Source of the DNA: a virus
Virus record (IMG/VR): IMGVR_UViG_3300021961_000042
Span: 32,001-96,000 of that record
DNA: 64,000 bases
Direction: 5' to 3' (one strand)
The translations under genes were made by a program, and so were the position numbers. The notes under the pieces were generated by a model. That model was not told where the DNA came from. It saw only the letters and a program-made list of their open reading frames with translations, and did no database searches. Every line of letters starts with the position of its first letter. The first letter of the stretch is position 1. Positions 13,901-33,601 of this stretch are shown in pieces.

Positions 13901-14261
13901 CAAATGGAGAAAAGTTGACCCACAAGCGTCAACACCTAGTGACCCACAACCCGCACCAACAATTTTTGGATCTGAATTAAATGATTGGAATACCGATTTA
14001 CAAACAACTAATAACTTGTATTCGGTAAAATACCAAACAATGTCATTTAATGGTACGCCTTATTTTCAATCAACTAATGGAAATAACACCGGATATATAA
14101 TTAACTATGGAGTTAATGGACAACCAACACCAACACCTTCTCAAAATCAAGCAACTGATTCATTTATTGTTGGTGCCCCTTACCATTTTTATTTTGGGTT
14201 AAATAAAGGAAAAAGTGCAATGAACAGGTACATATCAAAATATATAGTAGGTCAAGAATAA
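7965..14261 (+). CDS. very large baseplate/tail-associated protein (2098 aa) with hydrophobic hairpin and delta-60 (DUF5122-like) beta-propeller repeats
   Basis: Position in the baseplate operon; N-terminal beta-sandwich (VVTGRVVANGGYGVPNVAVSVF...TNDSGDFMIVGVP); repeats such as DGKVVVGGGF, KILVGGSF, RLETDGSIDSTF. Confidence 0.7.
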   Translation: MGKSYRFRTTPGKDKNIRMNIEQDFDFIEILSLKLKQSDVYTRFCADYGVVTGRVVANGGYGVPNVAVSVFVPLTQEDENDVVISALYPYKRVDQKNEDGYRYNLLPYEKEYGGHTPTGTFPSREDVLTRQEVLEVYEKYYKYTVRTNDSGDFMIVGVPLGIQTVIMDMDISNIGCFSQRPSDLIRMGMGVESQFAGTQFRSSSDLDSLPQIINSKKDVDVASFWGEGDICNVGITRVDFDLRDLGIVIEPQAIFMGSLFSATEDDALGINCKPKFDTGNLCDLVTGPAKILAIRQTIENDSNGLPVLEQHQLPEGGNVVDDNGTWLVELPMNLDFVSTNEFGEQVLSNDPTVGIPTKAKYRFRVQYQNEGGVNDDVIRPDYLIPNIKEYGWNLFPEQKPANDLLQKQSYAFSLDWNEYGDTGTTIGNQMIQEAINCEDRFFEFNFNRVYTISAFLDRWKWGFNRSRHLGIKEITDRSCTTTTNRFPVNDGVRNFDSLFFVFNLLITLFTVVFPIIIIIWHFVARFYPIIRKILNLIFDILFVIIIGICNALNWVRRKFNLSELNCPDSNPIRLDDRTFPRLSLPMMGYPDCEACTCETYEMAQDLSDPIYAVERINYSVLIDSNSAGEYTWTELQEYQKLISPAYCNTFDTCEIDEQSFFFGINQGFAGYSGPYTQLSKTNVVVWPKQDSRVGALGYTPNWSHILNKLNSRGAYFENGTFIKTTVKNINPQTNVEQPSEPFLDLPLILICDEGTLQQLGGAGQLLTFTDITKINDPNLTGATLNQFGTLGVTGTTSNNQSNLITINESFITPGLQLSAATLHLKLTEQTKDYKFPAGVEYFQIITGGTLNQFEQIADIYSQYGVLRNFVYETGIKFRWGNGYFTAEDWGGRFSNQVTSIDVDLNNNIIVGGQFEYYSQSTTNFNNGNLTSGIVKLSNSDGSVDADFGNGSGYGSYDSGFGTGVVMALETQSDGKVVVGGGFDTYWDAGNQSTGLGSIVRLNDPYGEIDTTFNFGGSGFQGPFILNVKAIKIQPADQKILVGGSFASYNGTLINGLIRLETDGSIDSTFVSNLGSGISGAEGVWSIDLLSDGRIVVGGDFTTVNSNSYNNIVVLNPNGTIDTNFIVGSGFDVKVFSVKVDSNDNIFVGGEFTTYNGNLAPKLTKLLSTNGNIDSSFVLDPSINTALSNNTNFLIKTIELDTFNNNILIGGLFSIEGRNNIMRITNNGGTDPTFNSNFNWGTLVSVIKFLPDNSICVGGNFGPNVNENTANIRRITNSGTKFTTININNQIPFNTWHNVAQGYNAYPKFFFENFGNKEIIFLTRGTDPYTQKQTIEYDLSVLFGLSYDTVKVKGEYYLNVPIKPNFVNQSGQNASTTNLPWQEPGISNSLWYGGGTTPESHDVINNNNPILFHKPYNNFNIPTSSWTAFTNNSLKYYNSTDKSRVNHVAFPGDSKNIGNFTQNFGRESTVSYQYVNGKNTIGIQWSQGDPPSTIPTTPDYYVNSNVGDPVYKQGNIEGASFLAADFSPGEIFDLEDSSKFARVFSPAYHLDYLTDNVMINKQRLVFRSDRLPTSTTTEVNGNTSYSLFLNDNFAIYRISDQGILEGLTYQINQQTDTTNNFQDFADDNSSQVNDAILNTLTCEGLKPLDCYVGQGTSFSVSDPCPTNEDTSLSTQRVIGGCYYFVQEPFFKVESIKKDINFFAEWKARFRFTYAACRGVISHVFQNNWVNGSLYMFPIKKQTIFDIQGNPTKRIHCGSKDTFYSDQGPVYYNEDYNGYFYRATPYNQTNGFIGQKPKYFDTTTITWIDAEPKFKGMNKRNIHFPTTIMDLGARDQFAKEICFNPELEGYLIETIKSTSFNETSDILLFFILSRLLSSTNGQRLIGSGDASINTIFSRSENRIDGDLAQLFSINSEYGIVPFNDQFYDDFDIYLDSQGSALIGIFFSADTKNRILLTPGINTFGAVQQLIPYPKTQEVPFYKWRKVDPQASTPSDPQPAPTIFGSELNDWNTDLQTTNNLYSVKYQTMSFNGTPYFQSTNGNNTGYIINYGVNGQPTPTPSQNQATDSFIVGAPYHFYFGLNKGKSAMNRYISKYIVGQE
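10630..11800 (+). repeat. about 7 delta-60-type protein repeats
   Basis: Recurring (I/V)-x-VGG-x-F ... (R/K)L-x-x-(D/N)G-x-(I/V)D-x-x-F units of roughly 55 aa. Confidence 0.75.
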
Positions 14262-18878: not shown

Positions 18879-21868
18879 TGGCTAAAACTAAATTTTTATG
18901 TCCACCAATTGCGGCCACAGGTTCTGCAACTTTTTCCGACAATTTAGTCGGATTTCAAGTTGTGGACGGTGGAGGATTAACCCAAGGAAATTTTCAATTT
19001 ACAACATCATCTTTTGAAAAAGTAAATAGAAGTTTTTCTCTTGGGGTTTTTTCACAACCATACACTCTTGAAACATTAAAAATTGATAATATAGAGCAAA
19101 GTAAATTATTTGTTGAAAAGAACTTTCAAGTAGTACCAAACTTTGATTTATCACAAGTAACTAGTTTTTCACTATATGGTTCTTTTAGTAAAAGAATTTC
19201 TTCATCTATTACAAAAATTATAAGTAATTTTCCCGCAGCATTACAAATTGATTTTAAAAATTTTTCACAGTTTACGGGAAATACCGCTTTTAATATACAA
19301 TACGATAGTATTGAAAATGAAACTAGTTTTGATGTAAATATTTCATTAATAAAAAACCCATTTGATATTGATTACTCTATAAATGCAACATCGAATTTAG
19401 CGACAAGACCAATAAAGGTTAGTGAATATAGAAACCTTACAGTAAATTATACAAAATTTTCTTTATACGTTTCAAATTTAAATACACAATACAAAGTACT
19501 TGATTTTACCCCATCAACATTTATAAGTGCAGGAACTTTAAGTTTTATTGTTGAAGGTAATCCTTTTTCTTCACAAACAGCAACAACGGATACTTTAATT
19601 ATAAAACCAAATGATGAAAAAACAGAAGAAATTTTTAATACAAATTTTGATTATGTTGAAAAATATATTTTAAATAGACAAAGTTTTCCATTATATACTT
19701 CTGTTTATGAATATCCTGAATATAACGATAACGGAGAGTTAACTATGTATTCACAAAAATTATCATGGGGTTTAGACGGACTTTGGAATTTAGATATATT
19801 CAGCAATAATTTTGAGACATACTTACAAGATTTAAGTAATATAACGGAAAATATAGATAGCTACAGAACCAATTTAATAAGTAGATTTTTAACTTCAGGT
19901 TCAATAAAAGAATTTGATACTAACGATCAGAAAGTAGAAAAAGTATTACAGTTATACGGAAGAAGTTTCGATGAAACAAAAAAGTTTATTGATTCTTTAG
20001 CTTATATGACATCGGTTAATTATAAGGTGGGTAACGACATACCCTCACAGTTGTTAGTGAATTTGGCAAACACTTTAGGGTTTGATACTAAAACAACACC
20101 AATCACTAATGATGATTTAATGAATTCTATTTTTACAACATCAAAAGAACAAATTTATTCGGGACAGGCTGTTCAAAAAACACCACAAGAACTAAATTAT
20201 CAGTTTTATCGAAATTTAATTTTAAATGCTTCATATCTTTTTAGGTCTAAAGGTACTAGGAAATCAATTGAATATATTTTAAGATTTATTGGTGCACCCG
20301 AACAATTAATAGAATTTAACGAGTACATTTATTTGGCCGATAGTAGAATCCCTATTGAAGATTTTGATTCCCAATATGCGACAATTTCTGGAGGTACTAA
20401 GTTTTTTACAAGACCTTCTTTAGATTCAAACAATACTTTTAAAATTAGAGGTGTAAAATACACTGCGTTTACTACTGACGGGTTTATACAAAGTACCATA
20501 ATAGATGAAACAGATTACCCAATAAATTTGATAACAGGATATCCTGAAGTTCCTGTTTTTACTGCTGATTATTATTTCCAAAAAGGATCAGGTTGGTTTG
20601 AAGTAACAACACAACATAGGTCTCAGGAAGTGGTTGATTTTGAGTTATCTAATTTTACGGTAACACCATCTATTGTTAGGACTAAACTGGCTCCATTTAC
20701 ATATGGAAAAGAATATTTAGATAGGTTTGAAAATTTTCCATATATGGAACTTGGATATAATTTATATAGGACTATTGATAACAAAAAATCTTGGAGAAAA
20801 GATGAGGTTGGTAGACGAAAATATACTAATGGCCTTGGATCAACACTTTATGAAACTAGTGATGATAGGTTAGTTATTAATAGTAAAAACATGGAGATAT
20901 ATTTAAATATGGGACAAGGATTGACATACGATGTATGGAATACTTCAGTACAATATAATTACCCTATACCGAATAGTGGATTATCAGGTAATTATCCATC
21001 ACCAGGTTTAAATGATTGGACAGTTATAAATCCAAAACCAAAAGAAAAAACATTTTTTGAGTTTGCTCAAACTTTTTATAATAACATGATTAATGTTAGA
21101 AATAGACAAACAATATCTGATGGTAAAACAGGAGGGTACCCAACACTACAGTCTATTTTTTGGAAATATCTTCAATCACAACAAACTGTAAATATACCAA
21201 CAAATAATTACACTTATCAAAAAATGATAGATTATACACTTGGTTTAGGTGATTATTGGGTTAGACTTGTAGAGCAATTTGTACCCGCAACTGCGTTGTG
21301 GATGACGGGACAAAAAATGGATAACTCCGCATTTCATAGGCAAAAAGTCGTTTGGAGAAGACAAAGAGGGTGTTCATTTATTGAAAGCATATGTCCTCCT
21401 TGTGAATATAATGGAGAACCATTTACATATGATTGTATCGATCAAACAACAACATGTAACATACCAAGCTTTAATCCAGCAACTGTTTTAAATAATAAAA
21501 TTAATCAGTTAATAACAAGTAGTGGATATACAACCAACCAGTGTAACTTTAATACAATTTTATCTGATTGGTATGTTGATTTAAGATTAAAGGATATTTT
21601 AACAAATACTGAACAAAGTTTAATATTAGAAAAATTTTATACAGGTTATGGTCAAAATGCTTCAAATTTAACTACAGGTTTACCTTTAACTTATTATGAT
21701 ATAATAAATGCGATAGACGATAAACTAGAGTTATTGTACCAAGATGGGTTGAATTACTATTTATCGGGAGGAAATCTTATAATAAGTAATTCTAGTTGTT
21801 ATGATGATTTCAATAATAAACAAATCAAATTATATATTGGTTTGGACGTACAAATTAATTGTGGATAA
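18878..21868 (+). CDS. baseplate protein with P2 gpI / T4 gp7-like motif
   Basis: LLVNLANTLGF...YLFRSKGTRKSIEYILRFIG. Confidence 0.65.
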   Translation: MAKTKFLCPPIAATGSATFSDNLVGFQVVDGGGLTQGNFQFTTSSFEKVNRSFSLGVFSQPYTLETLKIDNIEQSKLFVEKNFQVVPNFDLSQVTSFSLYGSFSKRISSSITKIISNFPAALQIDFKNFSQFTGNTAFNIQYDSIENETSFDVNISLIKNPFDIDYSINATSNLATRPIKVSEYRNLTVNYTKFSLYVSNLNTQYKVLDFTPSTFISAGTLSFIVEGNPFSSQTATTDTLIIKPNDEKTEEIFNTNFDYVEKYILNRQSFPLYTSVYEYPEYNDNGELTMYSQKLSWGLDGLWNLDIFSNNFETYLQDLSNITENIDSYRTNLISRFLTSGSIKEFDTNDQKVEKVLQLYGRSFDETKKFIDSLAYMTSVNYKVGNDIPSQLLVNLANTLGFDTKTTPITNDDLMNSIFTTSKEQIYSGQAVQKTPQELNYQFYRNLILNASYLFRSKGTRKSIEYILRFIGAPEQLIEFNEYIYLADSRIPIEDFDSQYATISGGTKFFTRPSLDSNNTFKIRGVKYTAFTTDGFIQSTIIDETDYPINLITGYPEVPVFTADYYFQKGSGWFEVTTQHRSQEVVDFELSNFTVTPSIVRTKLAPFTYGKEYLDRFENFPYMELGYNLYRTIDNKKSWRKDEVGRRKYTNGLGSTLYETSDDRLVINSKNMEIYLNMGQGLTYDVWNTSVQYNYPIPNSGLSGNYPSPGLNDWTVINPKPKEKTFFEFAQTFYNNMINVRNRQTISDGKTGGYPTLQSIFWKYLQSQQTVNIPTNNYTYQKMIDYTLGLGDYWVRLVEQFVPATALWMTGQKMDNSAFHRQKVVWRRQRGCSFIESICPPCEYNGEPFTYDCIDQTTTCNIPSFNPATVLNNKINQLITSSGYTTNQCNFNTILSDWYVDLRLKDILTNTEQSLILEKFYTGYGQNASNLTTGLPLTYYDIINAIDDKLELLYQDGLNYYLSGGNLIISNSSCYDDFNNKQIKLYIGLDVQINCG

Positions 21869-24636
21869 TGGCGGGAATATCGGGTAAAACGTTAGGTGGT
21901 TATTATAGTTATGTGGACTCTTGTGGTAATGCCCAACAAGGTTTTGCATTTGCAGATGTTTCCGTTTGTATTGATCAAACATATTCAGCAAGTACTGTTG
22001 GTTTAATTATTGATAGTGGTGCCACTTGTAATTTAAACTGTAATCAGGGACCAATAAGTTATACGTATAGTGTAACCGGTACTTGTGATAATGTCAGTGG
22101 AGGGACTATTAATTTACAAGTTTTTGGTGGTATTGCGCCATACACGATAACAAATACACAACCTGGTAGTGTTCCTGTACAAACTAGTTCGAGTTTATTT
22201 TCATATACAGGTTTAAGTGCTAGTACATACGTTTTTAGAATAAATGATTCATCTGCACCACAAAATAATGAATTATACTTTAATATTAACATATCTGAGT
22301 GTTTTGAAACAACAATAGATAACGTTTCAGGAACAACTTGCGGAGATAATGACGGATCTTTTTTCATTAATGCCAACTCCAATTCATCTCCTTATAATAT
22401 AATACTTTATAAAAACGGGATTTATTATTCGTTATATCAAACAAACACACTACCTTATTTAATTAATGGGTTGAGTTCTGGGATTTATAATGCGGTTGTT
22501 TATGATTATGGACTGACCACAGCTAATACTGAAAATGTAGTGATTAGTGCTAGTACCCCAATCGAATACGGAATTTGGAAAGTTAACACTTCTACATGTG
22601 TAATTAATACAGGTAAGTTGGCGGTAACTGGATTAACAGGAAATGGTCCTTTTACTATTCAGTGGTCTGACGGGCAGACAGGACAATTGGCTACAGGGTT
22701 AACAGAAGGTACATATAGTGTAACGGTTACTGATTATTACGGGTGCCAATCAACACAAACAGAAACAATCGGAGCGGCACTCCCTTTAGGGATTGTTGGA
22801 TCAACATCAGTTAATCCAACAGGTTGTTTTTCTTCTGATGGTAGTATAACCGTAAATATTTCTGGAGGTACGGGACCTTATTATTACTCTGCAAATACAA
22901 ACCAAGTTGGTTATACTTTGTCTGATACCTTTACTTTATCTAATATGCCTTCGGGTAATTATACTGTTTTTATTAGAGATGCTAACTTTTGTTCTATAAC
23001 AACAAACGTAAGTATTGGAGTACCATTTGGGTTCACATTTGTAGGGAATACAATAACAAATAGTCAATGTAATCAAAATTCAGGGTCTTTAACCACAACA
23101 ATACAAGGGGCAAATGGTTCTGTATTTTATAGTCTTTCAGGATTAACAAACGGAACATTTTATTCACAAAATTTACAATCAAATACTGCGACTTTTAATA
23201 ATTTATCTCCCGATAATTACTTATTAACAATATCAGGACAATCTAGTTCTTGTAATTACACAGATACGGTTTTAATACAATCTGTTGATAAGTTTAATGT
23301 ATCATTAAGTGTTACGGGGGACACATGTAATTCAGGTAATGGAAAAGTTGCTATAAATGTGGGTACTGGATACACTAATTGGCAAACAAACGGACAATTG
23401 GATTATATTTTAAGTAATGGTCAATCTATTATAGATACACCACTAACTTCATATACATTTACCAACCTAACTTCAGGAAATTATACATTACAAGTTGTAG
23501 ATGAAGATAATTGTTCTGTAACAAGAAACTTCACAATAGTACCGGGGGGTAATTTAAATAGTTTTGTAACAACCACAAATTTAATTAATGGAAATGATGG
23601 GTCTGCGACTGTTTTTATATTTGAAGGAGAACCTACGTTTACATACACTTGGAGTGATAACGTGCCCGCAGGAACAACAGGTAGTACCGCTACCGGATTA
23701 AGTGGTGGATCATATTCTGTTTTAGTTACAGATAGTAGTGGGTGTACAAATCAATTATCTTTTGAAATTATAAGCAATTCTAATAACCCAGGACTACCAC
23801 CAGGTATTAGTCCGAGTATTGTTTCAAATTATGTGGTTTATGAAATATGTTCCTCAAACTTTATAACAACATCGAACACAAAAAGAGGTATAAGTGAAAT
23901 GCTTAATGAAGGTTATTTGGATTTGAGTAGTGGTTATACAAATTGTATATTAAACACAGTTTCTTTAGATTGTATAATAACTATAAGTGGTGTTTCATAT
24001 ACACAAACACTAACCGCACCAAACGACGAATCATGGAAAACCGCAATTGAAACAATTTTATCATCAATACCTGAAATAAGTGATTATGACGTTGATTTAT
24101 TTAATAACACACTCCAAATAAAATCAACATGTACAGATGGTGTTGATAGTTTAGGAGAAACCGATTTTAAATTAGAGTTAGCAATAACATACGACATTAG
24201 TTGTTATGAACCGGTAACACCAACCCCAACAGTTACCGTGACACCAACACCTACACCAACCCCTACACCTACACCAACTCCTACACCTACACCAACACCT
24301 ACACCAACTCCGACGGCAACACCGGTACCTCCTCCATCATTTATGTGGTTCACAAATGGTCAGACATATCCGAGTACTGTTAATACTTACTGTACTGCGA
24401 CTAACTGTGCAACATTTACTTTTTATACAACAGGCGCCACAATATCTCAAAACGATATAATTTATGCGGATGTTGCACTTACACAAAATATTGGAGGATT
24501 AGCGACAAATTTTGGACCATCTGGTGGTGGATTTGGAAGAATGTTCCTATCTAATGATTGTCCAATAGTTGGTACAAGAATAATTGTACAAATAGATGGG
24601 ACAGGAAAAGTAATAAGTCAACCATACTCTTGTTAA
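21868..24636 (+). CDS. Cys/Thr-rich virion appendage protein with SprB-like repeats and (Pro-Thr)n linker
   Basis: Repeated C...G-x-I...GG-x-x-PY-x-Y/W...GL-x-x-G-x-Y-x-V-x-V-x-D...C units; PT tract near the C-terminus; no signal peptide. ATG overlaps the upstream stop (TAATG). Confidence 0.75.
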   Translation: MAGISGKTLGGYYSYVDSCGNAQQGFAFADVSVCIDQTYSASTVGLIIDSGATCNLNCNQGPISYTYSVTGTCDNVSGGTINLQVFGGIAPYTITNTQPGSVPVQTSSSLFSYTGLSASTYVFRINDSSAPQNNELYFNINISECFETTIDNVSGTTCGDNDGSFFINANSNSSPYNIILYKNGIYYSLYQTNTLPYLINGLSSGIYNAVVYDYGLTTANTENVVISASTPIEYGIWKVNTSTCVINTGKLAVTGLTGNGPFTIQWSDGQTGQLATGLTEGTYSVTVTDYYGCQSTQTETIGAALPLGIVGSTSVNPTGCFSSDGSITVNISGGTGPYYYSANTNQVGYTLSDTFTLSNMPSGNYTVFIRDANFCSITTNVSIGVPFGFTFVGNTITNSQCNQNSGSLTTTIQGANGSVFYSLSGLTNGTFYSQNLQSNTATFNNLSPDNYLLTISGQSSSCNYTDTVLIQSVDKFNVSLSVTGDTCNSGNGKVAINVGTGYTNWQTNGQLDYILSNGQSIIDTPLTSYTFTNLTSGNYTLQVVDEDNCSVTRNFTIVPGGNLNSFVTTTNLINGNDGSATVFIFEGEPTFTYTWSDNVPAGTTGSTATGLSGGSYSVLVTDSSGCTNQLSFEIISNSNNPGLPPGISPSIVSNYVVYEICSSNFITTSNTKRGISEMLNEGYLDLSSGYTNCILNTVSLDCIITISGVSYTQTLTAPNDESWKTAIETILSSIPEISDYDVDLFNNTLQIKSTCTDGVDSLGETDFKLELAITYDISCYEPVTPTPTVTVTPTPTPTPTPTPTPTPTPTPTPTPTATPVPPPSFMWFTNGQTYPSTVNTYCTATNCATFTFYTTGATISQNDIIYADVALTQNIGGLATNFGPSGGGFGRMFLSNDCPIVGTRIIVQIDGTGKVISQPYSC
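24211..24336 (+). repeat. (Pro-Thr)n coding repeat
   Basis: acacca/acacct hexamer array encoding PVTPTPTVTVTPTPTP...TATPVPPP. Confidence 0.95.
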
Positions 24637-24924
24637 ATGCCATATTCAATAGACATATTAAATATTTCAGGAGGTACACCACCTGTTTCATTATTTGCCT
24701 GTGATGAATTTGGTAATAATTGTACATTGTTAGGGACAACAACAGGCACTTATGTTTTACCCGCTCTTTTACAAACGGCAACTACTATTATGGTTAAAAC
24801 GGTTGATAGTACGGGTTGTATTTACTTTAAGATATTAACTTGTGAAGAAGAAACATATTTTGTATTAACAGAATTAGGAGACATTTTAGAAACTGAAAGT
24901 GGAGATTCATTAGTTTGGTCCTAA
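24637..24924 (+). CDS. small Cys-containing structural/adaptor protein (paralog 1)
   Basis: Shares G-x-x-P...CD...C...D-x-x-GC pattern with the 24940 and 30781 ORFs; ends VLTELGDILETESGDSLVWS. Confidence 0.7.
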   Translation: MPYSIDILNISGGTPPVSLFACDEFGNNCTLLGTTTGTYVLPALLQTATTIMVKTVDSTGCIYFKILTCEEETYFVLTELGDILETESGDSLVWS

Positions 24925-24939
24925 TCTATATTTATTATT

Positions 24940-25227
24940 ATGATAATTAATATTACTGGAGAAACAGGAACTTTAGAACCTTTAGATATTTTTCTTTGTG
25001 ACCCAACAAATACAGGATGTTTTTACATTTCAGGATTAACAAATATTCCAGCAACTGTTGTAATAAACACTGAAAACTATTTCCCAAACGAAAATTTTTT
25101 ATATTTAAGAATAGTCGATACTAATGGTTGCATTTACTCAACAATAATAGACTGTTTAGGTCAAAAGGCTTTCCAAGATGACATATACTTTAATTTTATG
25201 GACGGGTTTGGGTATATTTTTCAATAA
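24940..25227 (+). CDS. small Cys-containing structural/adaptor protein (paralog 2)
   Basis: Same pattern; ends KAFQDDIYFNFMDGFGYIFQ. Confidence 0.7.
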   Translation: MIINITGETGTLEPLDIFLCDPTNTGCFYISGLTNIPATVVINTENYFPNENFLYLRIVDTNGCIYSTIIDCLGQKAFQDDIYFNFMDGFGYIFQ

Positions 25228-25248
25228 TTAATATTTATAAAATAAAGT

Positions 25249-27090
25249 ATGCCAACATATCAATTATTAACGGATAGAACATTAGCAGATGCGTCAGCAA
25301 TAACGCCAACGACACTAATACATATAGTATATACAGGAGACCCATCTCAAAACCCTGCCGGATCCTCATATAAAGCAGAATTAGGACAATTAGTTGGATT
25401 ATTTAGTGGAGCATCTGACACTTTAGTGACGGGTGGAACATATAGTGCAGGAACAATTACTTTTACAAATAATAGTGGAGGAACATTTAATGTTTCAGGA
25501 TTAACAGAACCATTTAGCGGAGGATCAGGAAACTGTATTGCAGATCTATATGTTACAAATATACATGGATGTTCACCAATAACAATATACGATTCTATTA
25601 GATCTACAGGTTCTACGGTCTCAGGATTAACTTCATTTTCTTTTGGTTTTGAAACCTCCGCAACTACTGATTATTCTTTTGCTACTGGAGCACAAACTTT
25701 GGCTTCGGGACCATACTCACACGCTGAAGGTATTTTGACAATATCTTCAGGTATATCTTCACATGCAGAGGGAGTATTAACAGTTGCCGCTGAGTGGGGG
25801 TCCCATGCTGAGGGAGGATATTATAATGGTGCTAATTTTGCACCTGGAGGTAAGGCTCTTGCTTGGGGTTCACATGCTGAAGGAACATTAACTATCGCTT
25901 CGGGTGTTTCATCACATTCTGAAGGTGTTTATACTGTTGCCTTAGGATGGGGTTCACATGCAGAAGGAGGGTATGTAGATGGCGGTTTATATTCTGGTGG
26001 TACCGCTGTTGGTTTGGGTTCACATGCTGAAGGACAAGAAACAATATCATCGGGAACATCTTCACATTCAGAAGGTTGGTTAACAAATTCTAGTGGTTCT
26101 TATTCACATGCGGAAGGGCAACTAACACTATCTTTGGGACAATCTTCACATGCCGAAGGACAAACCACAATATCTTCAGGTGATTGGTCACATGCGGAAG
26201 GAAGTTCTACAATTGCATCAGGTAATTGGTCACATGCTGAAGGAAGTCAAACAGTCGCTAGTGGTGATTTTTCACATGCGGAAGGTTTTGGAACATTAGC
26301 AGATGGCAAGGGTTCACATGCGGAAGGAGGTTATTTCCTACACCCAACATACGTAAGTGGAGGTACCGCATTGGGTAGGGCTTCACATGCTGAAGGGGTA
26401 AAAACTACGGCTTATGGGATAGCATCCCATGCGGAAGGTGACGAGACATACTCTTTTGGTTTTGGGTCTCACGCCGAAGGTAATGGGACGTACACTTCAG
26501 GAACATACCAACACGCAACAGGAAAATGGAATTTGACTGCGGACACCAGTTCAGGTGCATTTATCATTGGTAATGGAACAAGTAATTTAAATAGAAGTAA
26601 TTTACTATTTGCGGCAAATTCAGGTGTTACAATTTATGGTAATTTTACTGCAAACACGGTATCTGCCACAACATATTATAATTTACCACCAAAAGAGGTT
26701 TTTTATAAATCTTCAGGACCTGGTTTTGCATATCTTGGTGAATTTTATGAACCATATTGTAGTGGTAGTTCCGATAAGGTTTATGTTAGCGGAACAATAC
26801 CTTATGATTTTGATAGTTTAATTAGTAGTAAACTAATAACTATTTCAGACTTCACGGCAAGTGAATTGACTGATTTGAGAATAAATTATAACCAAACGGG
26901 AGGTATTTTTAGTGCTAACACGGCCTTTACTCAAACATCAATTAGTTACACCACCGAAGAATTTACTGAAGTTGATATACTACCAATTTTTTCAGGTTTA
27001 TCCGCTAACGATAACTTTTCTGTTAGTATATTTCAAAATAACACTAACTTATTAGTCTTAGGTTTAAAAATGAAATATAATAGATTGTAA
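25249..27090 (+). CDS. fibre/adhesin-like protein with YadA-head-like SHAEG repeats
   Basis: About 17 repeats of roughly 14 aa (x-S-G-x-x-SHAEG-x-x-T); N-terminal ~42 aa nearly identical to the 31090 ORF. Confidence 0.75.
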   Translation: MPTYQLLTDRTLADASAITPTTLIHIVYTGDPSQNPAGSSYKAELGQLVGLFSGASDTLVTGGTYSAGTITFTNNSGGTFNVSGLTEPFSGGSGNCIADLYVTNIHGCSPITIYDSIRSTGSTVSGLTSFSFGFETSATTDYSFATGAQTLASGPYSHAEGILTISSGISSHAEGVLTVAAEWGSHAEGGYYNGANFAPGGKALAWGSHAEGTLTIASGVSSHSEGVYTVALGWGSHAEGGYVDGGLYSGGTAVGLGSHAEGQETISSGTSSHSEGWLTNSSGSYSHAEGQLTLSLGQSSHAEGQTTISSGDWSHAEGSSTIASGNWSHAEGSQTVASGDFSHAEGFGTLADGKGSHAEGGYFLHPTYVSGGTALGRASHAEGVKTTAYGIASHAEGDETYSFGFGSHAEGNGTYTSGTYQHATGKWNLTADTSSGAFIIGNGTSNLNRSNLLFAANSGVTIYGNFTANTVSATTYYNLPPKEVFYKSSGPGFAYLGEFYEPYCSGSSDKVYVSGTIPYDFDSLISSKLITISDFTASELTDLRINYNQTGGIFSANTAFTQTSISYTTEEFTEVDILPIFSGLSANDNFSVSIFQNNTNLLVLGLKMKYNRL

Positions 27091-27134
27091 TATTTTTAAT
27101 TTACAAAAAATACTATAACATTTATTATAACTAT

Positions 27135-28331
27135 ATGAAAATATTTGTTCAAATCGCATCATATAGAGATCCAGAGCTTCTACCAACAATTAGAGATTGT
27201 ATTAATAAGGCAAAACACCCTGAAAATTTAACTTTTGGTATATGTTGGCAAAAAGACGAAACAGAATCTTTAGAAGAATTTTATACCGATGATAGATTTA
27301 GAATTTTAGAATATCATTGGTCAGAAAGTAAAGGTTTATGTTGGGCACGTTCAGAAATACAAAAACTTTGGAAAGGAGAAGAATATACCTTACAACTAGA
27401 TTCACATCATAGATTTTTACAAAATTGGGATGAAGAATTAATCAATATGATGGGTATGGTTGACTCTGAAAAACCAATTATCACATCATATGCTGGAATG
27501 TACCGACCAAGTAATAATGAGTTATTAAATGTTGAACCATATAAAATGGTTGCTACAAATTTCACAGAAAGTGGAACAATTATGTTCAGACCACACTCAA
27601 TACCAAATTGGGAAACATTAGAAAAACCAATACCTGCTAGATTTGTTAGTGGACATTTTTTCTTCACATTAGGAAAACATTGTGAAGAATACAAATACGA
27701 CCCAAACATTTATTTTGCCGGTGATGAAATTAGTTTATCAATTCGTTCCTATACATTAGGGTATGATTTGTTTCACCCTCATAAAACAGTTGTGTGGCAT
27801 GAATATACAAGAGAAGGTAGAACAAAACATTGGACAGATTTTAATCAGGAAAATAAAACAAAAGGGGTTGTTGAAAAACAATGGTGGGAAATGGATAATG
27901 AATCCAAAAGAAGACTAAGACATATGTTACAAGAAGAAGATAATAACATAGACTTAGGAATATATGGATTAGGTAGTGTTAGAACACATAAAGAATATGA
28001 AGACTACGCAGGAATAAATTTTAAGTATAGGAAACTTCACCAAGAAACACTCAAAGGAACCAATCCACCAATTAATGATTCATCAGAATGGTATTTTAGT
28101 GAAGAAAAAGAATATAACTTGGAATTAGAAATACCAATTACCGAAGACTTTAAATTTATTTATGTTGGTATTGAAGATGATAAAAATAATGTTATCTACC
28201 GTAATGATCTAACCACTTACCAAGAAAAAATAACAGCATGTTTCAAGTCATTTTCTCAACCATATAAATGGGTATATTGGGTTTATGATAATACAGACAA
28301 TTGGATAAACAGACAAGATTTTTTATTATGA
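27135..28331 (+). CDS. glycosyltransferase, GT60 / Pfam GlcNAc-like (polypeptide alpha-GlcNAc transferase family)
   Basis: IFVQIASYRDPEL, SKGLCWAR, LQLDSHHRFLQNWD, YDPNIYFAGDEISLSIRSYTLGYDLFHP, YGLGSVRT. Confidence 0.85.
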   Translation: MKIFVQIASYRDPELLPTIRDCINKAKHPENLTFGICWQKDETESLEEFYTDDRFRILEYHWSESKGLCWARSEIQKLWKGEEYTLQLDSHHRFLQNWDEELINMMGMVDSEKPIITSYAGMYRPSNNELLNVEPYKMVATNFTESGTIMFRPHSIPNWETLEKPIPARFVSGHFFFTLGKHCEEYKYDPNIYFAGDEISLSIRSYTLGYDLFHPHKTVVWHEYTREGRTKHWTDFNQENKTKGVVEKQWWEMDNESKRRLRHMLQEEDNNIDLGIYGLGSVRTHKEYEDYAGINFKYRKLHQETLKGTNPPINDSSEWYFSEEKEYNLELEIPITEDFKFIYVGIEDDKNNVIYRNDLTTYQEKITACFKSFSQPYKWVYWVYDNTDNWINRQDFLL

Positions 28332-29125
28332 ATATAGGTGTATTTTACCAATCGGGACATAAATTAGTGGCATGCTACAAGGCGTTAGAACAATTAAGAA
28401 AAATCTACCCTAATGTACCTGTCGCATTATTTGAAGATGGATCTGATATTTTAGAACCCGTTGCAAAAAAGTTTAACTGTGATTACACTTGGTTAGAACA
28501 ACAAGGAGTGAATAATCCAACATCGGGGAGAGTTTTTGTAAAAGAAAACGGACAACTTGATTGGTTAAAAAGAATATATGATGCCTGTACTACAACATTA
28601 AAAGATGTTGATTGGGTTTTACATTATGAGGATGATGTTTGGTGTCGATTTGAAATAACAAAACCACCTAAGTTTGATATTTCAGGGGCAAATGGTCCAT
28701 TATATACTAAAGAACTTTATCAATATTTAAAAAATAAATTTAACGTATTGGACGAATCTAGACATCATTGGAGTCATTTAGGTTCATTAGAAAGTTATGG
28801 TGCTTGTGGAGGAACTATATTTAATAGAGAAAAATTTATTGAAATTTATAATAGATTAGATGAAGTACCGTGGAGTGAAATTTATAAATTAGATTCAAGA
28901 CCTATTGAATGGTGCGACGCAACACTATCATTTTTGTTTCAGTTTTTTGGTTATACTAGTGGTGTTTGGGAGGATTGGGCACAATACGATTCAAAAAATA
29001 TAGGTAATTGGTGGGATAAAACAGGGTGGTCAGTACCTATGGAAGAACAACCAAATGTTGCTTTTTTACACGCATATAAACATTTTTATAATTATAAACC
29101 TGAAGAAGTAATTTTAGATTTATAA
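28328..29125 (+). CDS. putative GT-A fold glycosyltransferase
   Basis: LFEDGSD, DWVLHYEDDVW (DxD-like), CGGTIFNR, WCDATLSFLF, C-terminal H-x-x-K; ATG overlaps the upstream GT stop (ATGA). Confidence 0.7.
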   Translation: MNIGVFYQSGHKLVACYKALEQLRKIYPNVPVALFEDGSDILEPVAKKFNCDYTWLEQQGVNNPTSGRVFVKENGQLDWLKRIYDACTTTLKDVDWVLHYEDDVWCRFEITKPPKFDISGANGPLYTKELYQYLKNKFNVLDESRHHWSHLGSLESYGACGGTIFNREKFIEIYNRLDEVPWSEIYKLDSRPIEWCDATLSFLFQFFGYTSGVWEDWAQYDSKNIGNWWDKTGWSVPMEEQPNVAFLHAYKHFYNYKPEEVILDL

Positions 29126-29162
29126 AACAAAAGTTAGATTATTTATATAATATAAAAATTAG

Positions 29163-30779
29163 ATGGCAGATTTAAGATTTCAAGGTTGTTGTTATGACGC
29201 TTATCAATATGTGACGGACGATACCGCTTGGGTAGCGACTGGTGGTACTGCAACAACAGGTTTAACATATCATTTTTCGGGAGACCCTATTGTACCTGAT
29301 GGGTGTTATACTATTGTATCGGCTTTTACTTCAGGGTTTACTGCAACAACATTTACAAATTTAGATGGAACTTATACTTTACAAACCGATTGTTCAGATA
29401 CGTTATGTGCTACTGGTGATTGTTGTAGTAATGAAGTTTGTATTTCGATAAACTTTAGTGGATACACAGCAATAACCGGAAATTATAATGTTTCTGGATA
29501 TAATAATGGATATCCATTTTGGACAGGAGGAACAAATCCGGGTTACCTTTTTTATGATAACACTAAATGGTGTTTATCTACAGGACTTACAGGTAATTGT
29601 TTTTTTTATGGATCACAACCAACAACACAAACTTGTCCTGATTTAGACTCAACAATTTTAAACAATGGTGTTTGTCCTTCAGGATCTACACCATCTGACC
29701 CATGTTCATTATTAGATTTTGATATTTTATTGGAATGTGAAATACCAACACCTACACCAACACCTACACCCACACCCACTCCTACACCCACTCCTACACC
29801 CACACCAACTCCAAACCTATGCTCAGGTTTTACGGTTTCCATTTCAATATCAGGATCACCAGCACCTTTACCCCCACCCACACCTACACCTACACCCACA
29901 CCAACCATGTATCCAATTTTATCATCGGTTACTTACGTAGTGGATAGTGGGTTATTTGATTGTGCAAATGTTAAGCAATTAGTAGACTGTGATACAGGTT
30001 TAAGTTATTATGTAACAGGACCTATAACATTTTCAGGATCAGGAGTTACAACAGGGACAACATTTTTGGCGGTTATTAATGGAACTTATAAATGCGTGAC
30101 ATACCAAAATGATATATTTGGTAGTGTTTCAAATTATTTGAATTCAGTTCAAGCCATTTATATATCGGGATGTACGTCTTGTATTGCACCTACACCCACA
30201 CCAACCGCAACACCTACACCTACACCTACTCCGACACCTACTCCGACACCTACACCTACTCCGACATTTCCGGTAAATGCTCAATTTATATTTACATCTT
30301 GTACAAATAACAGTATGATCATTCAATACACATATCCAGGATCTACTGTTGATGTTGGAGATGTTTTAAAATCTTCTTCAGGTAGTTGTTATACCTATAT
30401 TGGTAACTTTGTTGGTTATACGCCACCTGCTGGGTTTATATGGTCACAACAAGAGGTATTTACAGGTACTTCTTTTACGGTGTTTAAATCATGTGAGGCA
30501 TGTTTGTTACCAACACCAACACCAACACCGACAGTCACTTCTTGGAATGTAAAGGGCGAATTTAGTTTGAATTGTCCTGTTTGTGAATTAACAAATGGAG
30601 GTACAACACAAACAATATACGCTGACGGATTATTGTTAGAAGATGGTGTTTATGTTTATGAAGATGTTGGATTAACAATTCCGGTATTTGTAACCTACAT
30701 AAAATACGGAACCAAAATATTTGAGGTGAGTTCAACAGGGTTATTAACTGAATATTGTAATGTAAACGGAAATTGTTAA
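29163..30779 (+). CDS. Cys-rich modular virion appendage protein with four (Pro-Thr)n linkers
   Basis: Small Cys-rich domains separated by PT tracts; C-terminal domain resembles that of the 21868 ORF. Confidence 0.75.
29744..30532 (+). repeat. four (Pro-Thr)n coding tracts (approx. 29744-29812, 29874-29906, 30188-30266, 30510-30532)
   Basis: acacct/acaccc/actcct hexamer arrays in frame with the 29163 ORF. Confidence 0.92.
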
Positions 30780-30780
30780 T

Positions 30781-31065
30781 ATGGCACAAATTGTAACATT
30801 AAATTCAACAACAGGTACATTCCCATTAGATGTTTGGGTATGTGATGGGTGTGTTTCCACATCTACTTGTTTATATATTGGAACAACATCTTCATTACCT
30901 TATAATTTTACATTACCATCTTTTTTTGAAGAAAGTCCATCGTACTCAATAAAAGTTATTGATGCAAATGAATGTGAATATTGTTTAACCGACAGTTCAT
31001 TTAAAGAGTTTATGGATGACGATATTTTTATATTTATGGACGATACACCATATGAATTTCAATAA
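30781..31065 (+). CDS. small Cys-containing structural/adaptor protein (paralog 3)
   Basis: Same pattern as 24637/24940; ends KEFMDDDIFIFMDDTPYEFQ. Confidence 0.7.
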   Translation: MAQIVTLNSTTGTFPLDVWVCDGCVSTSTCLYIGTTSSLPYNFTLPSFFEESPSYSIKVIDANECEYCLTDSSFKEFMDDDIFIFMDDTPYEFQ

Positions 31066-31089
31066 ACTTATATATATTATATAAAAGAC

Positions 31090-31950
31090 ATGGCAAAATT
31101 AACTGATAAAACATTAGCACAAGCAACAGCAATAACACCAACGACGTTGATACATATTGTGTATACAGGAGATCCTTCGCAGAATGCTGCAGGATCTTCG
31201 TATAAAGCGGAATTAGGTCAATTAACTACGATATTTGGTAGTGGTGGTAATTATTGGACATCGGGATCAAGTGGTACAGACTCTGTAGTCATAATAAATT
31301 CAAGTGGGGCTGACGCCACCGCAAATAGAGCATTGGCTTGGGGTAATCAAACACTGGCTTCAGGTTCTGATTCCACCGCTAGCGGATTTCAGACACAAGC
31401 GACTGGGTCAACATCGACCGCTCAAGGATATGAAACAATTGCTGGGGGCAGTAGATCACATGCGGAAGGGTTCCAAACTAGAGCGATAGGAACTAATTCA
31501 CATGCCGAAGGAAATGCCTGTGAGGCGAATGGAAACACGTCACACGCAGAAGGTTGGGTATGTTTGGCGAACGGAGATTTTTCACACGCAGAAGGTTGGA
31601 CAACTACTGCGGATGGAGATAGGTCCCATTCCCAAGGATATCTAACCGTTGCTAGTGGTAATAAATCACACGCGGGTGGAGATTCCTCAATTGCATCAGG
31701 GGAGACATCATTCATTCATTCAACTAATTCATTAGTCACTGGTACAAGAAGTGTATTATTGGGAGGACAGAATTTAACAGGAACAACAGACGATACCGTT
31801 TATGTACCTAATTTTATTATAAAAACATCTTATACACCAACTAGTACCGCTGATGTTGCTGGTGAACCCGGTTCTATAACATGGGACGATGATAATTTTT
31901 ATTATAAAACTAATAATGGTTGGTTTATAGTTACAGGATCTACTTTCTAA
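31090..31950 (+). CDS. short fibre/adhesin-like protein with SHAEG repeats
   Basis: N-terminus LTDKTLAQATAITPTTLIHIVYTGDPSQNAAGSSYKAELGQL; SHAEG repeats; C-terminal GEPGSITWDDDNFYYKTNNGW. Confidence 0.75.
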   Translation: MAKLTDKTLAQATAITPTTLIHIVYTGDPSQNAAGSSYKAELGQLTTIFGSGGNYWTSGSSGTDSVVIINSSGADATANRALAWGNQTLASGSDSTASGFQTQATGSTSTAQGYETIAGGSRSHAEGFQTRAIGTNSHAEGNACEANGNTSHAEGWVCLANGDFSHAEGWTTTADGDRSHSQGYLTVASGNKSHAGGDSSIASGETSFIHSTNSLVTGTRSVLLGGQNLTGTTDDTVYVPNFIIKTSYTPTSTADVAGEPGSITWDDDNFYYKTNNGWFIVTGSTF

Positions 31951-31951
31951 A

Positions 31952-33601
31952 ATGGTTAATTATAGTGCAAATACATGTGATATTATTACTTTATACCCTT
32001 TAGGTGTTGAGTGTATAGTTACAGACGCATATAGTCCTTTCACTACCGATGGTGCGATTTCATTATTTATCACAGGTGGCACTTCACCGTATTATGTTAA
32101 TTGGTCAAGTGGTTCACAATTACAATCCATATCAAATCTAGCACCAGGAGAATATACGGCAACAGTTACAGATTTTTTTGGTGATTTTACCGCAACTACA
32201 ACATGTGAAGTAGGTTTTGAAACATTTTATATAGAATCTTTTTTTAATTGTAATGATCCTGAAAGTTATTTATATTACACCGCCGATTTAGAAAATCAAA
32301 TCACAACAGGAAAAACATATATATTAGCATCTCAAACAGGATGTTGGGTTAGTGACGGATTGGTTTTGTACACAGGACAAACGTATTATCAATTTACCGC
32401 AACAACGACTTCAGGTCCTTTTGATAATTGTACAGAATGTTTACCAGTCACACCTGAATTTGAAAATACAGAAACACTTTGTTTAAATTCTAAAATTTAT
32501 ACAGCAACACCAACATTACCACCAGTTGTAACAGTTACAAATAATCAATTTCAATTCTACTCTGCATCAACAATAAATGGGTATCCATCTTGGACAAGTA
32601 GTACTAAAACCATTTATTATAATGCAAATTCATTACAGTGGATGGTTTCAGGTTGGACTTTAGCAGGTCAACCTGTTTTACAATCGAACATATCACCACC
32701 TATTGGTATTTGGACGTTTAACGGTGTTAGCGGAACAATAAATGTAACACAAGGATTATGTGAAGATAATATTGTTTTAAATACTACCCAATCACAAGCA
32801 ACCTGTAATAATTCAAATAACGGATTAATACAAGTGACATCAGTTGTTGGAGGAATAGCACCATATACGTACTCATTAACAAATAACCCATTAGACTACC
32901 AAAGCTCACCATTTTTTTTAAATTTAGATACAGGTACATATACAGTTTATGTTAAAGACATTATTGGAAATATTGGAAGTAAGTTAGCAACAATCACCCC
33001 ACAAACATCGGTAGCAAATTATCAAATAACATTAAATTTTGTACCCTCAACACCAACAATAACCGACACTCAGTCATATAAAGAAACGACCTTTGATTGG
33101 CAAGTTAGCATTCAACCACCATTACCACCTAATAAAACTATTACGTTTGATATTATTCACACAACAAATATTTCAGGAGGTACTTATACAACAAGTTCAC
33201 CAATATTATTACACTCCTCAACAACAGGACAAACAGGTGGAGGTCAATATTTAACAAGTGGAATTACAAATAGTTTCAATAACTCAACAACAACTTTTTG
33301 TGCTGGGTCAACTAACTTTACTAATTTTAATGTAACTGCAACAACAAGAACATATTCTGCAAAAATAACAGGACCTGGTACTGTTGGAGGTCAAATATTT
33401 AAAAAAATAACAACTAATAATTCTACAGTATGTCCAACAAAGGGAGTTATTAGAGATAGTTTTTCGGTGATTAATGCAACTATAGTTAATCAAAATGTTT
33501 GTGAAACTTTAAACATACCTGCTAACCCAATAACAAATACATTAGATAAAGAAGGACTATTAACTGTTGCACCAACCGGTGGTGGAGGTATCGGAGGATA
33601 A
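31952..33601 (+). CDS. Thr/Cys-rich appendage protein with SprB-like repeats
   Basis: GAISLFITGGTSPYYVNWS...LAPGEYTATVTD; GGIAPYTYSL...LDTGTYTVYVKD. Confidence 0.7.
   Translation: MVNYSANTCDIITLYPLGVECIVTDAYSPFTTDGAISLFITGGTSPYYVNWSSGSQLQSISNLAPGEYTATVTDFFGDFTATTTCEVGFETFYIESFFNCNDPESYLYYTADLENQITTGKTYILASQTGCWVSDGLVLYTGQTYYQFTATTTSGPFDNCTECLPVTPEFENTETLCLNSKIYTATPTLPPVVTVTNNQFQFYSASTINGYPSWTSSTKTIYYNANSLQWMVSGWTLAGQPVLQSNISPPIGIWTFNGVSGTINVTQGLCEDNIVLNTTQSQATCNNSNNGLIQVTSVVGGIAPYTYSLTNNPLDYQSSPFFLNLDTGTYTVYVKDIIGNIGSKLATITPQTSVANYQITLNFVPSTPTITDTQSYKETTFDWQVSIQPPLPPNKTITFDIIHTTNISGGTYTTSSPILLHSSTTGQTGGGQYLTSGITNSFNNSTTTFCAGSTNFTNFNVTATTRTYSAKITGPGTVGGQIFKKITTNNSTVCPTKGVIRDSFSVINATIVNQNVCETLNIPANPITNTLDKEGLLTVAPTGGGGIGG

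Follow-up and report, generated by a model that had tools for sequence, protein, structure and literature searches.

The DNA analysed here, hereafter the window, is a stretch of 64,000 nt representing bases 32001-96000 of the 105.5-kb IMG/VR virus record IMGVR_UViG_3300021961_000042. It encodes two glycosyltransferases (GTs), at 27135-28331 and 28328-29125, whose genes are flanked by those of two proteins, at 21868-24636 and 29163-30779, that contain (Pro-Thr)n, or PT, tracts. The data presented below suggest that the GT pair glycosylates the phage's own PT-linker fibre proteins, in a mucin-type O-glycosylation that would take place in the bacterial cytoplasm; from sequence comparisons and structural models, the probability of this reading is estimated at roughly 0.55. 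A mucin-type system had been proposed in an earlier note on this DNA. The enzyme identities given there stand, and comparative genomics revealed a genomic link between GT60 and PT tracts that agrees with the proposal. The accompanying argument concerning the timing of expression does not stand, as the promoter-like sites on which it was based occur at chance level.

The first enzyme is a member of GT60

The product of the first gene (27135-28331, plus strand; 398 aa), the proposed initiator, was identified by profile, PHROG and model comparisons as a GT60 polypeptide-type N-acetylhexosamine (HexNAc) transferase. It matches the GT60 profile, PF11397, with 229.4 bits, where 21 is the cut-off (E value 1e-67), over profile positions 92-350 together with an N-terminal stretch, and it matches phrog_24687 with an E value of 5e-101. 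The motif D89-x-H91 (in the context LQLD89-S-H91), E198 and H222 are invariant over 19 aligned sequences, down to 31% identity. The replacement of DxD by DxH is a hallmark common to GT60 and GT27 (PMC7185993).

The AlphaFold model of the protein (predicted local distance difference test, pLDDT, 92.8) comprises a GT-A catalytic domain (residues 1-320) and an additional, small C-terminal β-sandwich (about 325-397), which is missing from the short phage forms of GT60; no ricin-type lectin domain is apparent. The best 50 Foldseek matches in the PDB were all GT27 polypeptide N-acetylgalactosamine (GalNAc)-transferases. The VIA structure scan, which runs independently of Foldseek and covered 48,161 chains, returned GalNAc-T1 with Z 21.8 (275 residues, 3.4 Å) and Toxoplasma GalNAc-T3 (TgGalNAc-T3) with Z 19.9, and other GT-A enzymes with Z values of at most 16.9. 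A sequence search of the PDB with the protein yielded nothing useful. It is apparent that the gene encodes a soluble GT60 enzyme with a catalytic domain closest to the polypeptide GalNAc-transferases, and its assignment to GT60 in the earlier note is confirmed by profile, motif and fold alike. The family is a large one: metagenomes contain more than 7,000 of its cluster representatives.

Known GT60 enzymes are polypeptide α-N-acetylglucosamine (GlcNAc)-transferases, which modify Thr/Ser of mucin-like domains or hydroxyproline (Hyp) in Skp1 (PMC8724618, PMC7185993, PMC3769586). Thr/Ser in mucin-like repeats are the targets of the Golgi enzymes of Trypanosoma cruzi and Dictyostelium (PMC8724618, PMC3769586), of which that of T. 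cruzi requires Mn2+ and was assayed with the acceptor KPPT8KPP (PMC3769586). Thr-directed members of the family do exist, as had been claimed, namely the pp-α-GlcNAcTs, but the Dictyostelium Skp1 enzyme, which had been named alongside them, is a cytoplasmic enzyme that modifies Hyp (PMC8724618, PMC3769586).

The second enzyme has a GT-A fold

The second gene (28328-29125, plus strand; 265 aa), which encodes the proposed extender, overlaps the first by ATGA, an arrangement indicative of translational coupling. Homologues of its product begin at the ATG at 28328 and not at a TTG further upstream. The protein gave no match in Pfam (E≤0.01), PHROGs, NCBIfam or the sequences of the PDB, and the Pfam Galactosyl_T and Fringe profiles gave no indication of GT31 membership. 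It was the fold alone that revealed it as a GT. Its model, with a pLDDT of 92.3, adopts a GT-A fold, and Foldseek ranked GT6 first, with GT6 and GT31 matches at E values of 1e-7. In the VIA scan the best match was the chondroitin synthase CHSY3 (Z 14.5), and the GT31 enzymes Drosophila C1GalT1 (12.6), Manic Fringe (12.5), B3GalT5 (12.3), B3GNT2 (12.1) and B3GalT6 (12.0) were also found; Z values for other GT-A enzymes were about 10-11.9, with LgtC (GT8) at 11.9.

The family to which the protein belongs contains more than 200 metagenomic proteins, in which E101 and D103 are invariant and D102 nearly so, and fusions to GT25, GT6, GT11, GT4 or methyltransferase domains occur among its remote homologues. 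Judging from the modelled fold and this DxD-type motif, 28328-29125 encodes a soluble GT-A glycosyltransferase of an undescribed family, in agreement with the earlier identification of the gene as a GT. Its resemblance to GT31 in the model should be regarded as a lead rather than as family membership.

PT-tract proteins flank the GT pair

The GT pair is situated amid fibre genes, within a block of baseplate and fibre genes that extends from 6056 to 35826. The block contains a baseplate-wedge PHROG, a weak Baseplate_J match, DUF5122, and SprB and YadA-head repeats. A location in or beside the structural module is shared with phage virion glycosylation systems of the mycobacteriophage type. Upstream of the pair, the gene at 21868-24636 (plus strand) encodes a Thr/Ser-rich, fibre-like protein with SprB repeats (PF13573, E value 3e-11; 14.9% Thr) and one long PT tract, a strict (PT)12 at 24244-24315 that lies within a wider PT/PV-rich stretch (24211-24336). 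The protein is a candidate substrate, and its homologues are found in synteny at about 40 related loci. Directly downstream, the gene at 29163-30779 (plus strand) encodes the prime candidate substrate, a Cys-rich and Thr-rich (17.5%) protein of beads-on-a-string appearance with four PT linkers. Its strict runs of at least (PT)4 are located at 29745-29810, 29877-29906, 30213-30266 and 30510-30533.

These two open reading frames (ORFs) are the sole carriers of (PT)≥4 in the whole 105.5-kb record. For comparison, a sample of 50 random viral contigs (1.85 Mb) gave a base rate of approximately one tract-bearing contig per 50. The tracts use mixed CCN and ACN codons and do not, therefore, represent a simple DNA repeat, which indicates that they are kept at the protein level. 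Both the tracts and the GT genes are present where the earlier note had placed them, and its description of the neighbouring proteins as Thr-rich was also correct: Thr contents of the proteins encoded from 21868 to 33601 are 11-17.5%, as against 2-8% for non-structural genes. Its statement that signal peptides are lacking holds for both enzymes and both PT proteins, in which no signal peptide or membrane segment was detected (maximum Kyte-Doolittle values for a 19-residue window, 0.53-1.39).

The 29163-30779 protein contains 28 cysteines (5.2%), despite being synthesized in the cytoplasm without a signal peptide. It is possible that these residues bind metal, or that they form disulfides after lysis.

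GT60 genes are linked to PT tracts across divergent phages

The co-occurrence of GT60 with PT tracts was determined for gene neighbourhoods and for whole genomes. A search with the GT60 protein identified 64 viral loci. The synteny of the window is retained in 39 of these, and in all 39 a PT-tract homologue of the 29163 protein directly follows the GT gene or genes. GT60 and the second enzyme are both present in 25 of the 39, while in the remaining 14 GT60 alone precedes the PT protein. The clade was also resampled through the neighbouring gene at 33634 (80 loci), so as to avoid selection on GT60. In most of these loci the PT homologue again follows the GT gene or genes, the exceptions being three short contigs without PF11397.

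The link extends beyond this arrangement. In a distant clade GT60 is gone from this site yet is present elsewhere in the genome. One such distant relative (G010; 98% complete, 295 kb) has GT60 relocated 180 kb away and contains just two (PT)4 matches, one of which lies within an ORF of 1,319 aa (19% Thr) that immediately precedes GT60 at its new position. All 31 of the PT pattern matches in a 99% complete genome of 292 kb (G001) are within 2 kb of GT60. PT ORFs are also paired with GT60 in six loci with neighbours that are not homologous to those of the window (L029, L030, L036, L053, L058 and L062). A quick maximum-likelihood tree was constructed from 64 GT60 representatives clustered at 90% identity, in which five sequences with long branches (L387, L388, L390, L248 and L391) are poorly placed. 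A PT ORF is located within 2.5 kb of GT60 in 46 of the 64 representatives, and all deep branches of the phage GT60 tree contain such representatives.

The converse sampling gave a similar result. IMG/VR contigs were chosen by a (PT)8 DNA pattern alone, with an arbitrary 14-mer as the control. PF11397 was found in 10 of the 69 searchable (PT)8 contigs (13 of 72 if three contigs from earlier sets are counted), versus none of 79 random contigs (Fisher p=3e-4). In eight of the ten positive contigs the PT ORF is 0-6 kb from GT60, and in four it is directly adjacent. At the level of genomes, at least one (PT)4 tract was present in all 15 GT60-bearing genomes (3.3 Mb), as compared with one of the 50 random contigs, and with one of six among random contigs longer than 90 kb. 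The co-occurrence check proposed in the earlier note was thus positive in several lineages and against random controls, and these results establish that the genomic link of GT60 with PT-tract proteins is robust across divergent phages.

Proposed mechanism and alternative targets

The favoured mechanism is as follows. Late in infection, GT60 would attach HexNAc to Thr residues of the (PT)n linkers in the 29163 and 21868 proteins, either ahead of fibre assembly or while it proceeds. The sugar would most likely be GlcNAc from host UDP-GlcNAc, with Mn2+ bound by the DxH motif. The second enzyme would then add one more sugar to the HexNAc, in parallel with the GT27 and GT31 (C1GalT1) steps of core-1 synthesis. 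Since 14 of the 39 syntenic relatives are without the second enzyme, it appears to be dispensable. The glycan would stiffen the linkers and shield them from proteases, and it may also change the contact of the fibres with host or environmental glycans.

Several observations weigh against this proposal. Relatedness inflates the association counts, and much of the adjacency derives from one large syntenic phage clade, such that the number of independent lineages with a GT60-PT link is estimated at approximately 5-7, not 46. No PT ORF was found in the flank examined for 14 of the 64 GT60 representatives. Outside the synteny of the window, where four genomes were checked, the nearest PT tract may be far from GT60: 46 kb in G005 (a complete 154-kb genome with a single PT tract), approximately 70 kb in G009 and more than 100 kb in G006. 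In Stenotrophomonas phage RAS14 the PT tracts are approximately 40 kb from GT60. The homologue in Xanthomonas phage XacN1 lies beside genes for DNA polymerase, RNase H, a NUDIX protein and a carbamoyltransferase; a giant PT-containing ORF is about 9 kb from it. The distant tracts indicate that adjacency of GT60 and PT tracts is frequent, not obligatory. Three short relatives encode the PT protein on contigs that lack GT60. It is from family membership that sugar, anomer and acceptor residue have been deduced, and the GT31-like assignment of the second enzyme depends on Z gaps of 1-4 units.

The three short relatives (L087, L090 and L098; 30-32 kb) contain a PT homologue of the 29163 protein and no PF11397, and the GT slot is occupied by a gene for a 757-aa fibre protein and two small ORFs. 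These contigs could derive from relatives that naturally lack GT60, but as they are only 10% complete, they are uninformative as natural GT60 knockouts.

An alternative is that the GT pair modifies virion proteins but not the PT linkers specifically, the PT tracts being plain flexible linkers within a shared module. The targets might then be, for example, Ser/Thr of folded, Thr-rich regions of the fibres, or capsid or tail proteins as in mycobacteriophages. The entire block from 21868 to 33601 is, after all, 11-17% Thr, and in some loci a gene adjacent to GT60/GT2 encodes a Thr/Ser-rich protein without PT runs (L025, 186 aa, 18% Thr; L057, 303 aa, 16% Ser). However, GT60 is associated with the PT tracts themselves: the association holds in contigs sampled by (PT)8 alone, and it persists where GT60 has left the fibre module, as in G010. 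In addition, GT27 enzymes favour Pro beside Thr. The targets reported for mycobacteriophages are the C-termini of capsid and tail-tube subunits (Freeman 2023, as cited in PMC12619734), which would accord with modification outside of the linkers. Overall, this alternative is considered unlikely.

It is also conceivable that the GTs act on a target other than the virion, i.e. host envelope glycans, host proteins (in takeover or superinfection exclusion) or phage DNA bases, and that the genes occupy a moron-like position. The PHROGs class of the GT60 family, 'moron, auxiliary metabolic gene and host takeover', would fit such a role, as would the proximity of genes for replication and for a carbamoyltransferase to the homologues in XacN1 and RAS14, and the lack of a PT ORF in the flank examined for about a quarter of the GT60 representatives. 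A thymidylate-synthase-family protein, in principle a base hydroxymethylase, is encoded by G001 and by a second genome, G029. Against this, GT60 belongs, like the enzymes closest to it in structure, to the polypeptide transferases (PMC7185993), and the enzyme is soluble, unlike the Gtr-type serotype converters. The G010 genome has GT60 and no PF00303 homologue, which is weak evidence against DNA modification. Finally, neither the statistical link to PT tracts nor the fusions to prolyl-hydroxylase-like and radical SAM (S-adenosylmethionine) domains described below would be expected of an enzyme acting on DNA or lipopolysaccharide. A non-virion target is accordingly judged quite unlikely.

Partner enzymes and the acceptor residue

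The second enzyme is not the only partner of GT60 at this site. In sister phages, a GT60 allele that is 38-47% identical to that of the window is translationally coupled to an HtrL_YibB (PF09612) gene, which replaces that of the second enzyme. The pair is found at the GT site in L069 (3573-5596) and in about 17 further loci (L070-L080, L100-L103, L113 and L119). The PF09612 gene carries the NCBI name 'WlaTC/HtrL family glycosyltransferase'; a PDB sequence search with an HtrL protein gave nothing useful. Profile comparison revealed no similarity between the second enzyme and HtrL_YibB (probability 0.1), which points to a non-homologous replacement.

A different cassette was observed in three loci: L391 (2106-12473, plus strand), L386 (5780-11527, minus strand) and L392 (3-9185, minus strand). 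It consists, in this order, of one or more PT proteins, a PF13640 oxygenase, a radical SAM/SPASM protein and a short GT60, and in L386 an NAD-dependent sugar epimerase is also present. PF13640 is a family of 2-oxoglutarate-Fe(II) oxygenases of the prolyl 4-hydroxylase (P4H) type. Of about 120 (PT)8 loci, at least 9 have P4H-like ORFs adjoining the PT tracts, versus none of 80 control loci. Long proteins were also found in which GT60 is fused to PF13640 (often with peroxiredoxin), radical SAM, HtrL, GT8 or another GT60, and the radical SAM-GT60 fusions are 53-55% identical to the GT60 of the window. Such fusions to protein-modifying enzymes make Hyp a plausible acceptor in the lineages concerned.

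The situation in the clade of the window appears to be different. No PF13640 prolyl hydroxylase was found in the 105-kb record, which is 35% complete, nor in two genomes of the same clade, G001 (99%) and G029 (96%), and the long-form GT60 of the window shares no more than about 26-31% identity with the short forms adjoining P4H. The failure to find a prolyl hydroxylase makes Thr the likelier acceptor here, and from these comparisons the acceptor in this clade is probably Thr rather than Hyp. That GT60 instead acts on Hyp in the manner of Skp1 Gnt1, with a prolyl hydroxylase encoded in the remaining 65% of the genome or by the host, is very unlikely on these grounds, although the cassettes, the P4H-like ORFs near PT tracts, the bacterial P4H-GT60 fusions and the Hyp specificity of the founding GT60 enzyme (PMC8724618) all speak for it.

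The PT proteins of the three cassettes are Cys-rich (3.9-4.9%), and radical-SAM thioether crosslinks are therefore possible in them, beside Hyp glycosylation. The GT60 fusions are bacterial or metagenomic proteins (P0393-P0395, P0419, P0447, P0480-P0482 and P0490-P0510), some of which are named as proteins from metagenome-assembled genomes of Rickettsiales or Alphaproteobacteria. In XacN1 (L067, AP018399.1 213850-223508), the GT60 homologue is followed by genes for a 765-aa carbamoyltransferase, an HtrL-like protein (ORF330, a weak tblastn match) and a GT9 enzyme; this region may be a larger glycan-synthesis island.

Promoter-like sites and the timing of expression

The earlier note had suggested, from differences in promoter-like sites, that synthesis of the enzymes precedes that of their substrates. 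The sites themselves are present: TTTACA-N17-TATTAT is found at 27100-27128, upstream of the GT pair, with a -10 hexamer that ends 6 nt ahead of the ATG, and TATTTAT is found at 25232 and 29140. Neither type is enriched in the window, where sigma-70-like sites number 70 (63.6 ± 8.7 expected) and TATTTAT occurs 54 times (59 expected). Starts with TATTTAT 12-25 nt upstream are those at 838, 4460, 7965, 17970, 24940, 25249, 29163, 33634, 36472, 47377, 49365, 52851 and 58459. These 13 genes are a mixture of structural and non-structural ones, a helicase gene included, and a near variant of TATTTAT lies upstream of the GT genes too. With sigma-70-like sites at chance level, TATTTAT also before the helicase and its variant before the GTs, the suggested order of expression is not upheld. 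TATTTAT could nevertheless be a phage promoter or leader element, even though its total count is at the level expected by chance.

Comparison with known glycosylation systems

The closest parallels to the first enzyme are the GT60 enzymes of protists. T. cruzi TcOGNT-2 and Dictyostelium Gnt2, initiators of mucin-type glycosylation on Thr/Ser, resemble it in their match to PF11397, in the DxH motif and in a GT27-like domain. Neither they nor the phage enzyme have a ricin lectin domain, and in both cases the candidate acceptors are rich in Thr and Pro (KPPT8KPP in T. cruzi; PMC3769586). The protist proteins are Golgi type-II membrane proteins that act on secreted mucins, whereas the phage enzyme is soluble, is predicted to act on virion proteins in the bacterial cytoplasm and has the extra C-terminal β-sandwich.

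The Skp1 pathway of Dictyostelium and Toxoplasma (PhyA, then Gnt1) likewise employs a soluble, cytoplasmic GT60 enzyme that is followed by further soluble GTs, and the P4H-type oxygenase beside GT60 and PT proteins in other phage lineages adds to the likeness. It differs in that no prolyl hydroxylase was found in the clade of the window, and in that the candidate substrate consists of long structural repeats as opposed to a single Pro of Skp1. In the animal core-1 pathway, a GT27 polypeptide GalNAc-transferase is followed by the GT31 enzyme C1GalT1. The closest structures to the phage initiator are GT27 enzymes (Z 21.8), and the second enzyme matches GT31 at Z values of about 12-12.6; (PT)n, moreover, sets Pro at positions -1, +1 and +3 of every Thr. 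The sequence families are different, however, as the phage enzymes belong to GT60 and to an unclassified GT-A group, and the animal pathway operates in the Golgi rather than in the cytoplasm.

Viruses that encode their own glycosylation are known among the giant viruses, examples being the capsid glycans of chloroviruses, the fibrils of mimivirus and the prolyl 4-hydroxylase of PBCV-1. Those systems, too, are virus-encoded, cytoplasmic and host-independent, and they modify virion surface proteins; they differ in that the viruses are eukaryotic and in their GT families and linkages. To our knowledge, phage-encoded glycosylation of virions has been documented for mycobacteriophages only, in which it alters immune recognition. 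In the Che8-type mycobacteriophages, phage GTs encoded near structural genes act in the host cytoplasm, where they O-glycosylate virion proteins of the same phage (Freeman 2023, as cited in PMC12619734). The sites modified there are in the C-terminal tails of capsid and tail-tube subunits, which sets the system apart from one in which a GT60 initiator would act on PT linkers of jumbo-phage fibres (PMC12619734). For the aquatic jumbo 'moraphages' of Bacteroidota, the same source describes four core groups of glycosyltransferases, the function of which is unresolved (PMC12619734). Literature searches on GT60/PF11397 with phages or PT linkers, and on phage GTs with glycosylated tail fibres, brought up no account of such a system. 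As deduced from the sequences, the GT60/PT system would be a form of phage virion glycosylation with a mucin-type initiator, and new to the literature searched.

Possible significance

There is about an even chance that the proposal can be generalized, i.e. that many aquatic phages carry out a cytoplasmic mucin-type O-glycosylation of (Pro-Thr)n linkers by means of GT60 and interchangeable extenders (the GT31-resembling GT-A enzyme or HtrL/WlaTC), to which sister lineages add a prolyl hydroxylase and a radical-SAM/SPASM protein. If so, post-translationally tailored 'glyco-fibres' would constitute a class of phage structures that is both widespread and undescribed, and glycoprotein fibres would be common among environmental jumbo phages, probably those infecting Bacteroidota. 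This would bear on adsorption, on resistance to proteases and grazing, on the sticking of virions to mucus and polysaccharide, and on recognition by antibodies. The cassettes of the sister lineages would represent a Hyp glycosylation of phage fibres similar to that of Skp1 or of plant hydroxyproline-rich glycoproteins. It would also follow that the logic of the eukaryotic secretory pathway, in which an initiating polypeptide HexNAc-transferase is followed by a core extender, works in the bacterial cytoplasm. For glyco-engineers, the system would provide a pair of soluble and compact enzymes, for which (PT)n would serve as a very simple acceptor tag.

Other features of the record and of the fibre block

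The completeness of the record is 35% (CheckV), from which the genome of the phage is probably approximately 300 kb in size. A megablast comparison of a 10-kb region with 50,697 phage records gave no matches, and tblastn against phage records identified only four Xanthomonas and Stenotrophomonas jumbo phages, at 35-38% identity. In the baseplate portion of the block, a 2,098-aa protein (7965-14261) contains five DUF5122 β-propeller repeats. DUF5122 domains together with SprB repeats point to a Bacteroidota host.

Two further fibre genes are situated near the GT pair. That at 25249-27090 (plus strand) encodes a variable Gly/Ser/Thr-rich fibre protein with a YadA-head-like repeat (PF05658, E value 2e-8; phrog_25468, E value 8e-52), and its slot varies among related loci. 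Its relative at 31090-31950 (plus strand) is also Gly/Ser/Thr-rich (phrog_25468, E value 8e-24; 14.7% Thr).

Small paralogous proteins accompany both of the PT proteins. Two of 95 aa are encoded directly 3' of the first PT gene (24637-25227, plus strand, consisting of 24637-24924 and 24940-25227) and may be adaptors or chaperones. A third, recognized by alignment and synteny, is encoded directly 3' of the second PT gene (30781-31065, plus strand). Four cysteines, C22, C29, C61 and C69, are invariant in the alignment of these three 94-95-aa paralogues, the synteny of which is conserved.

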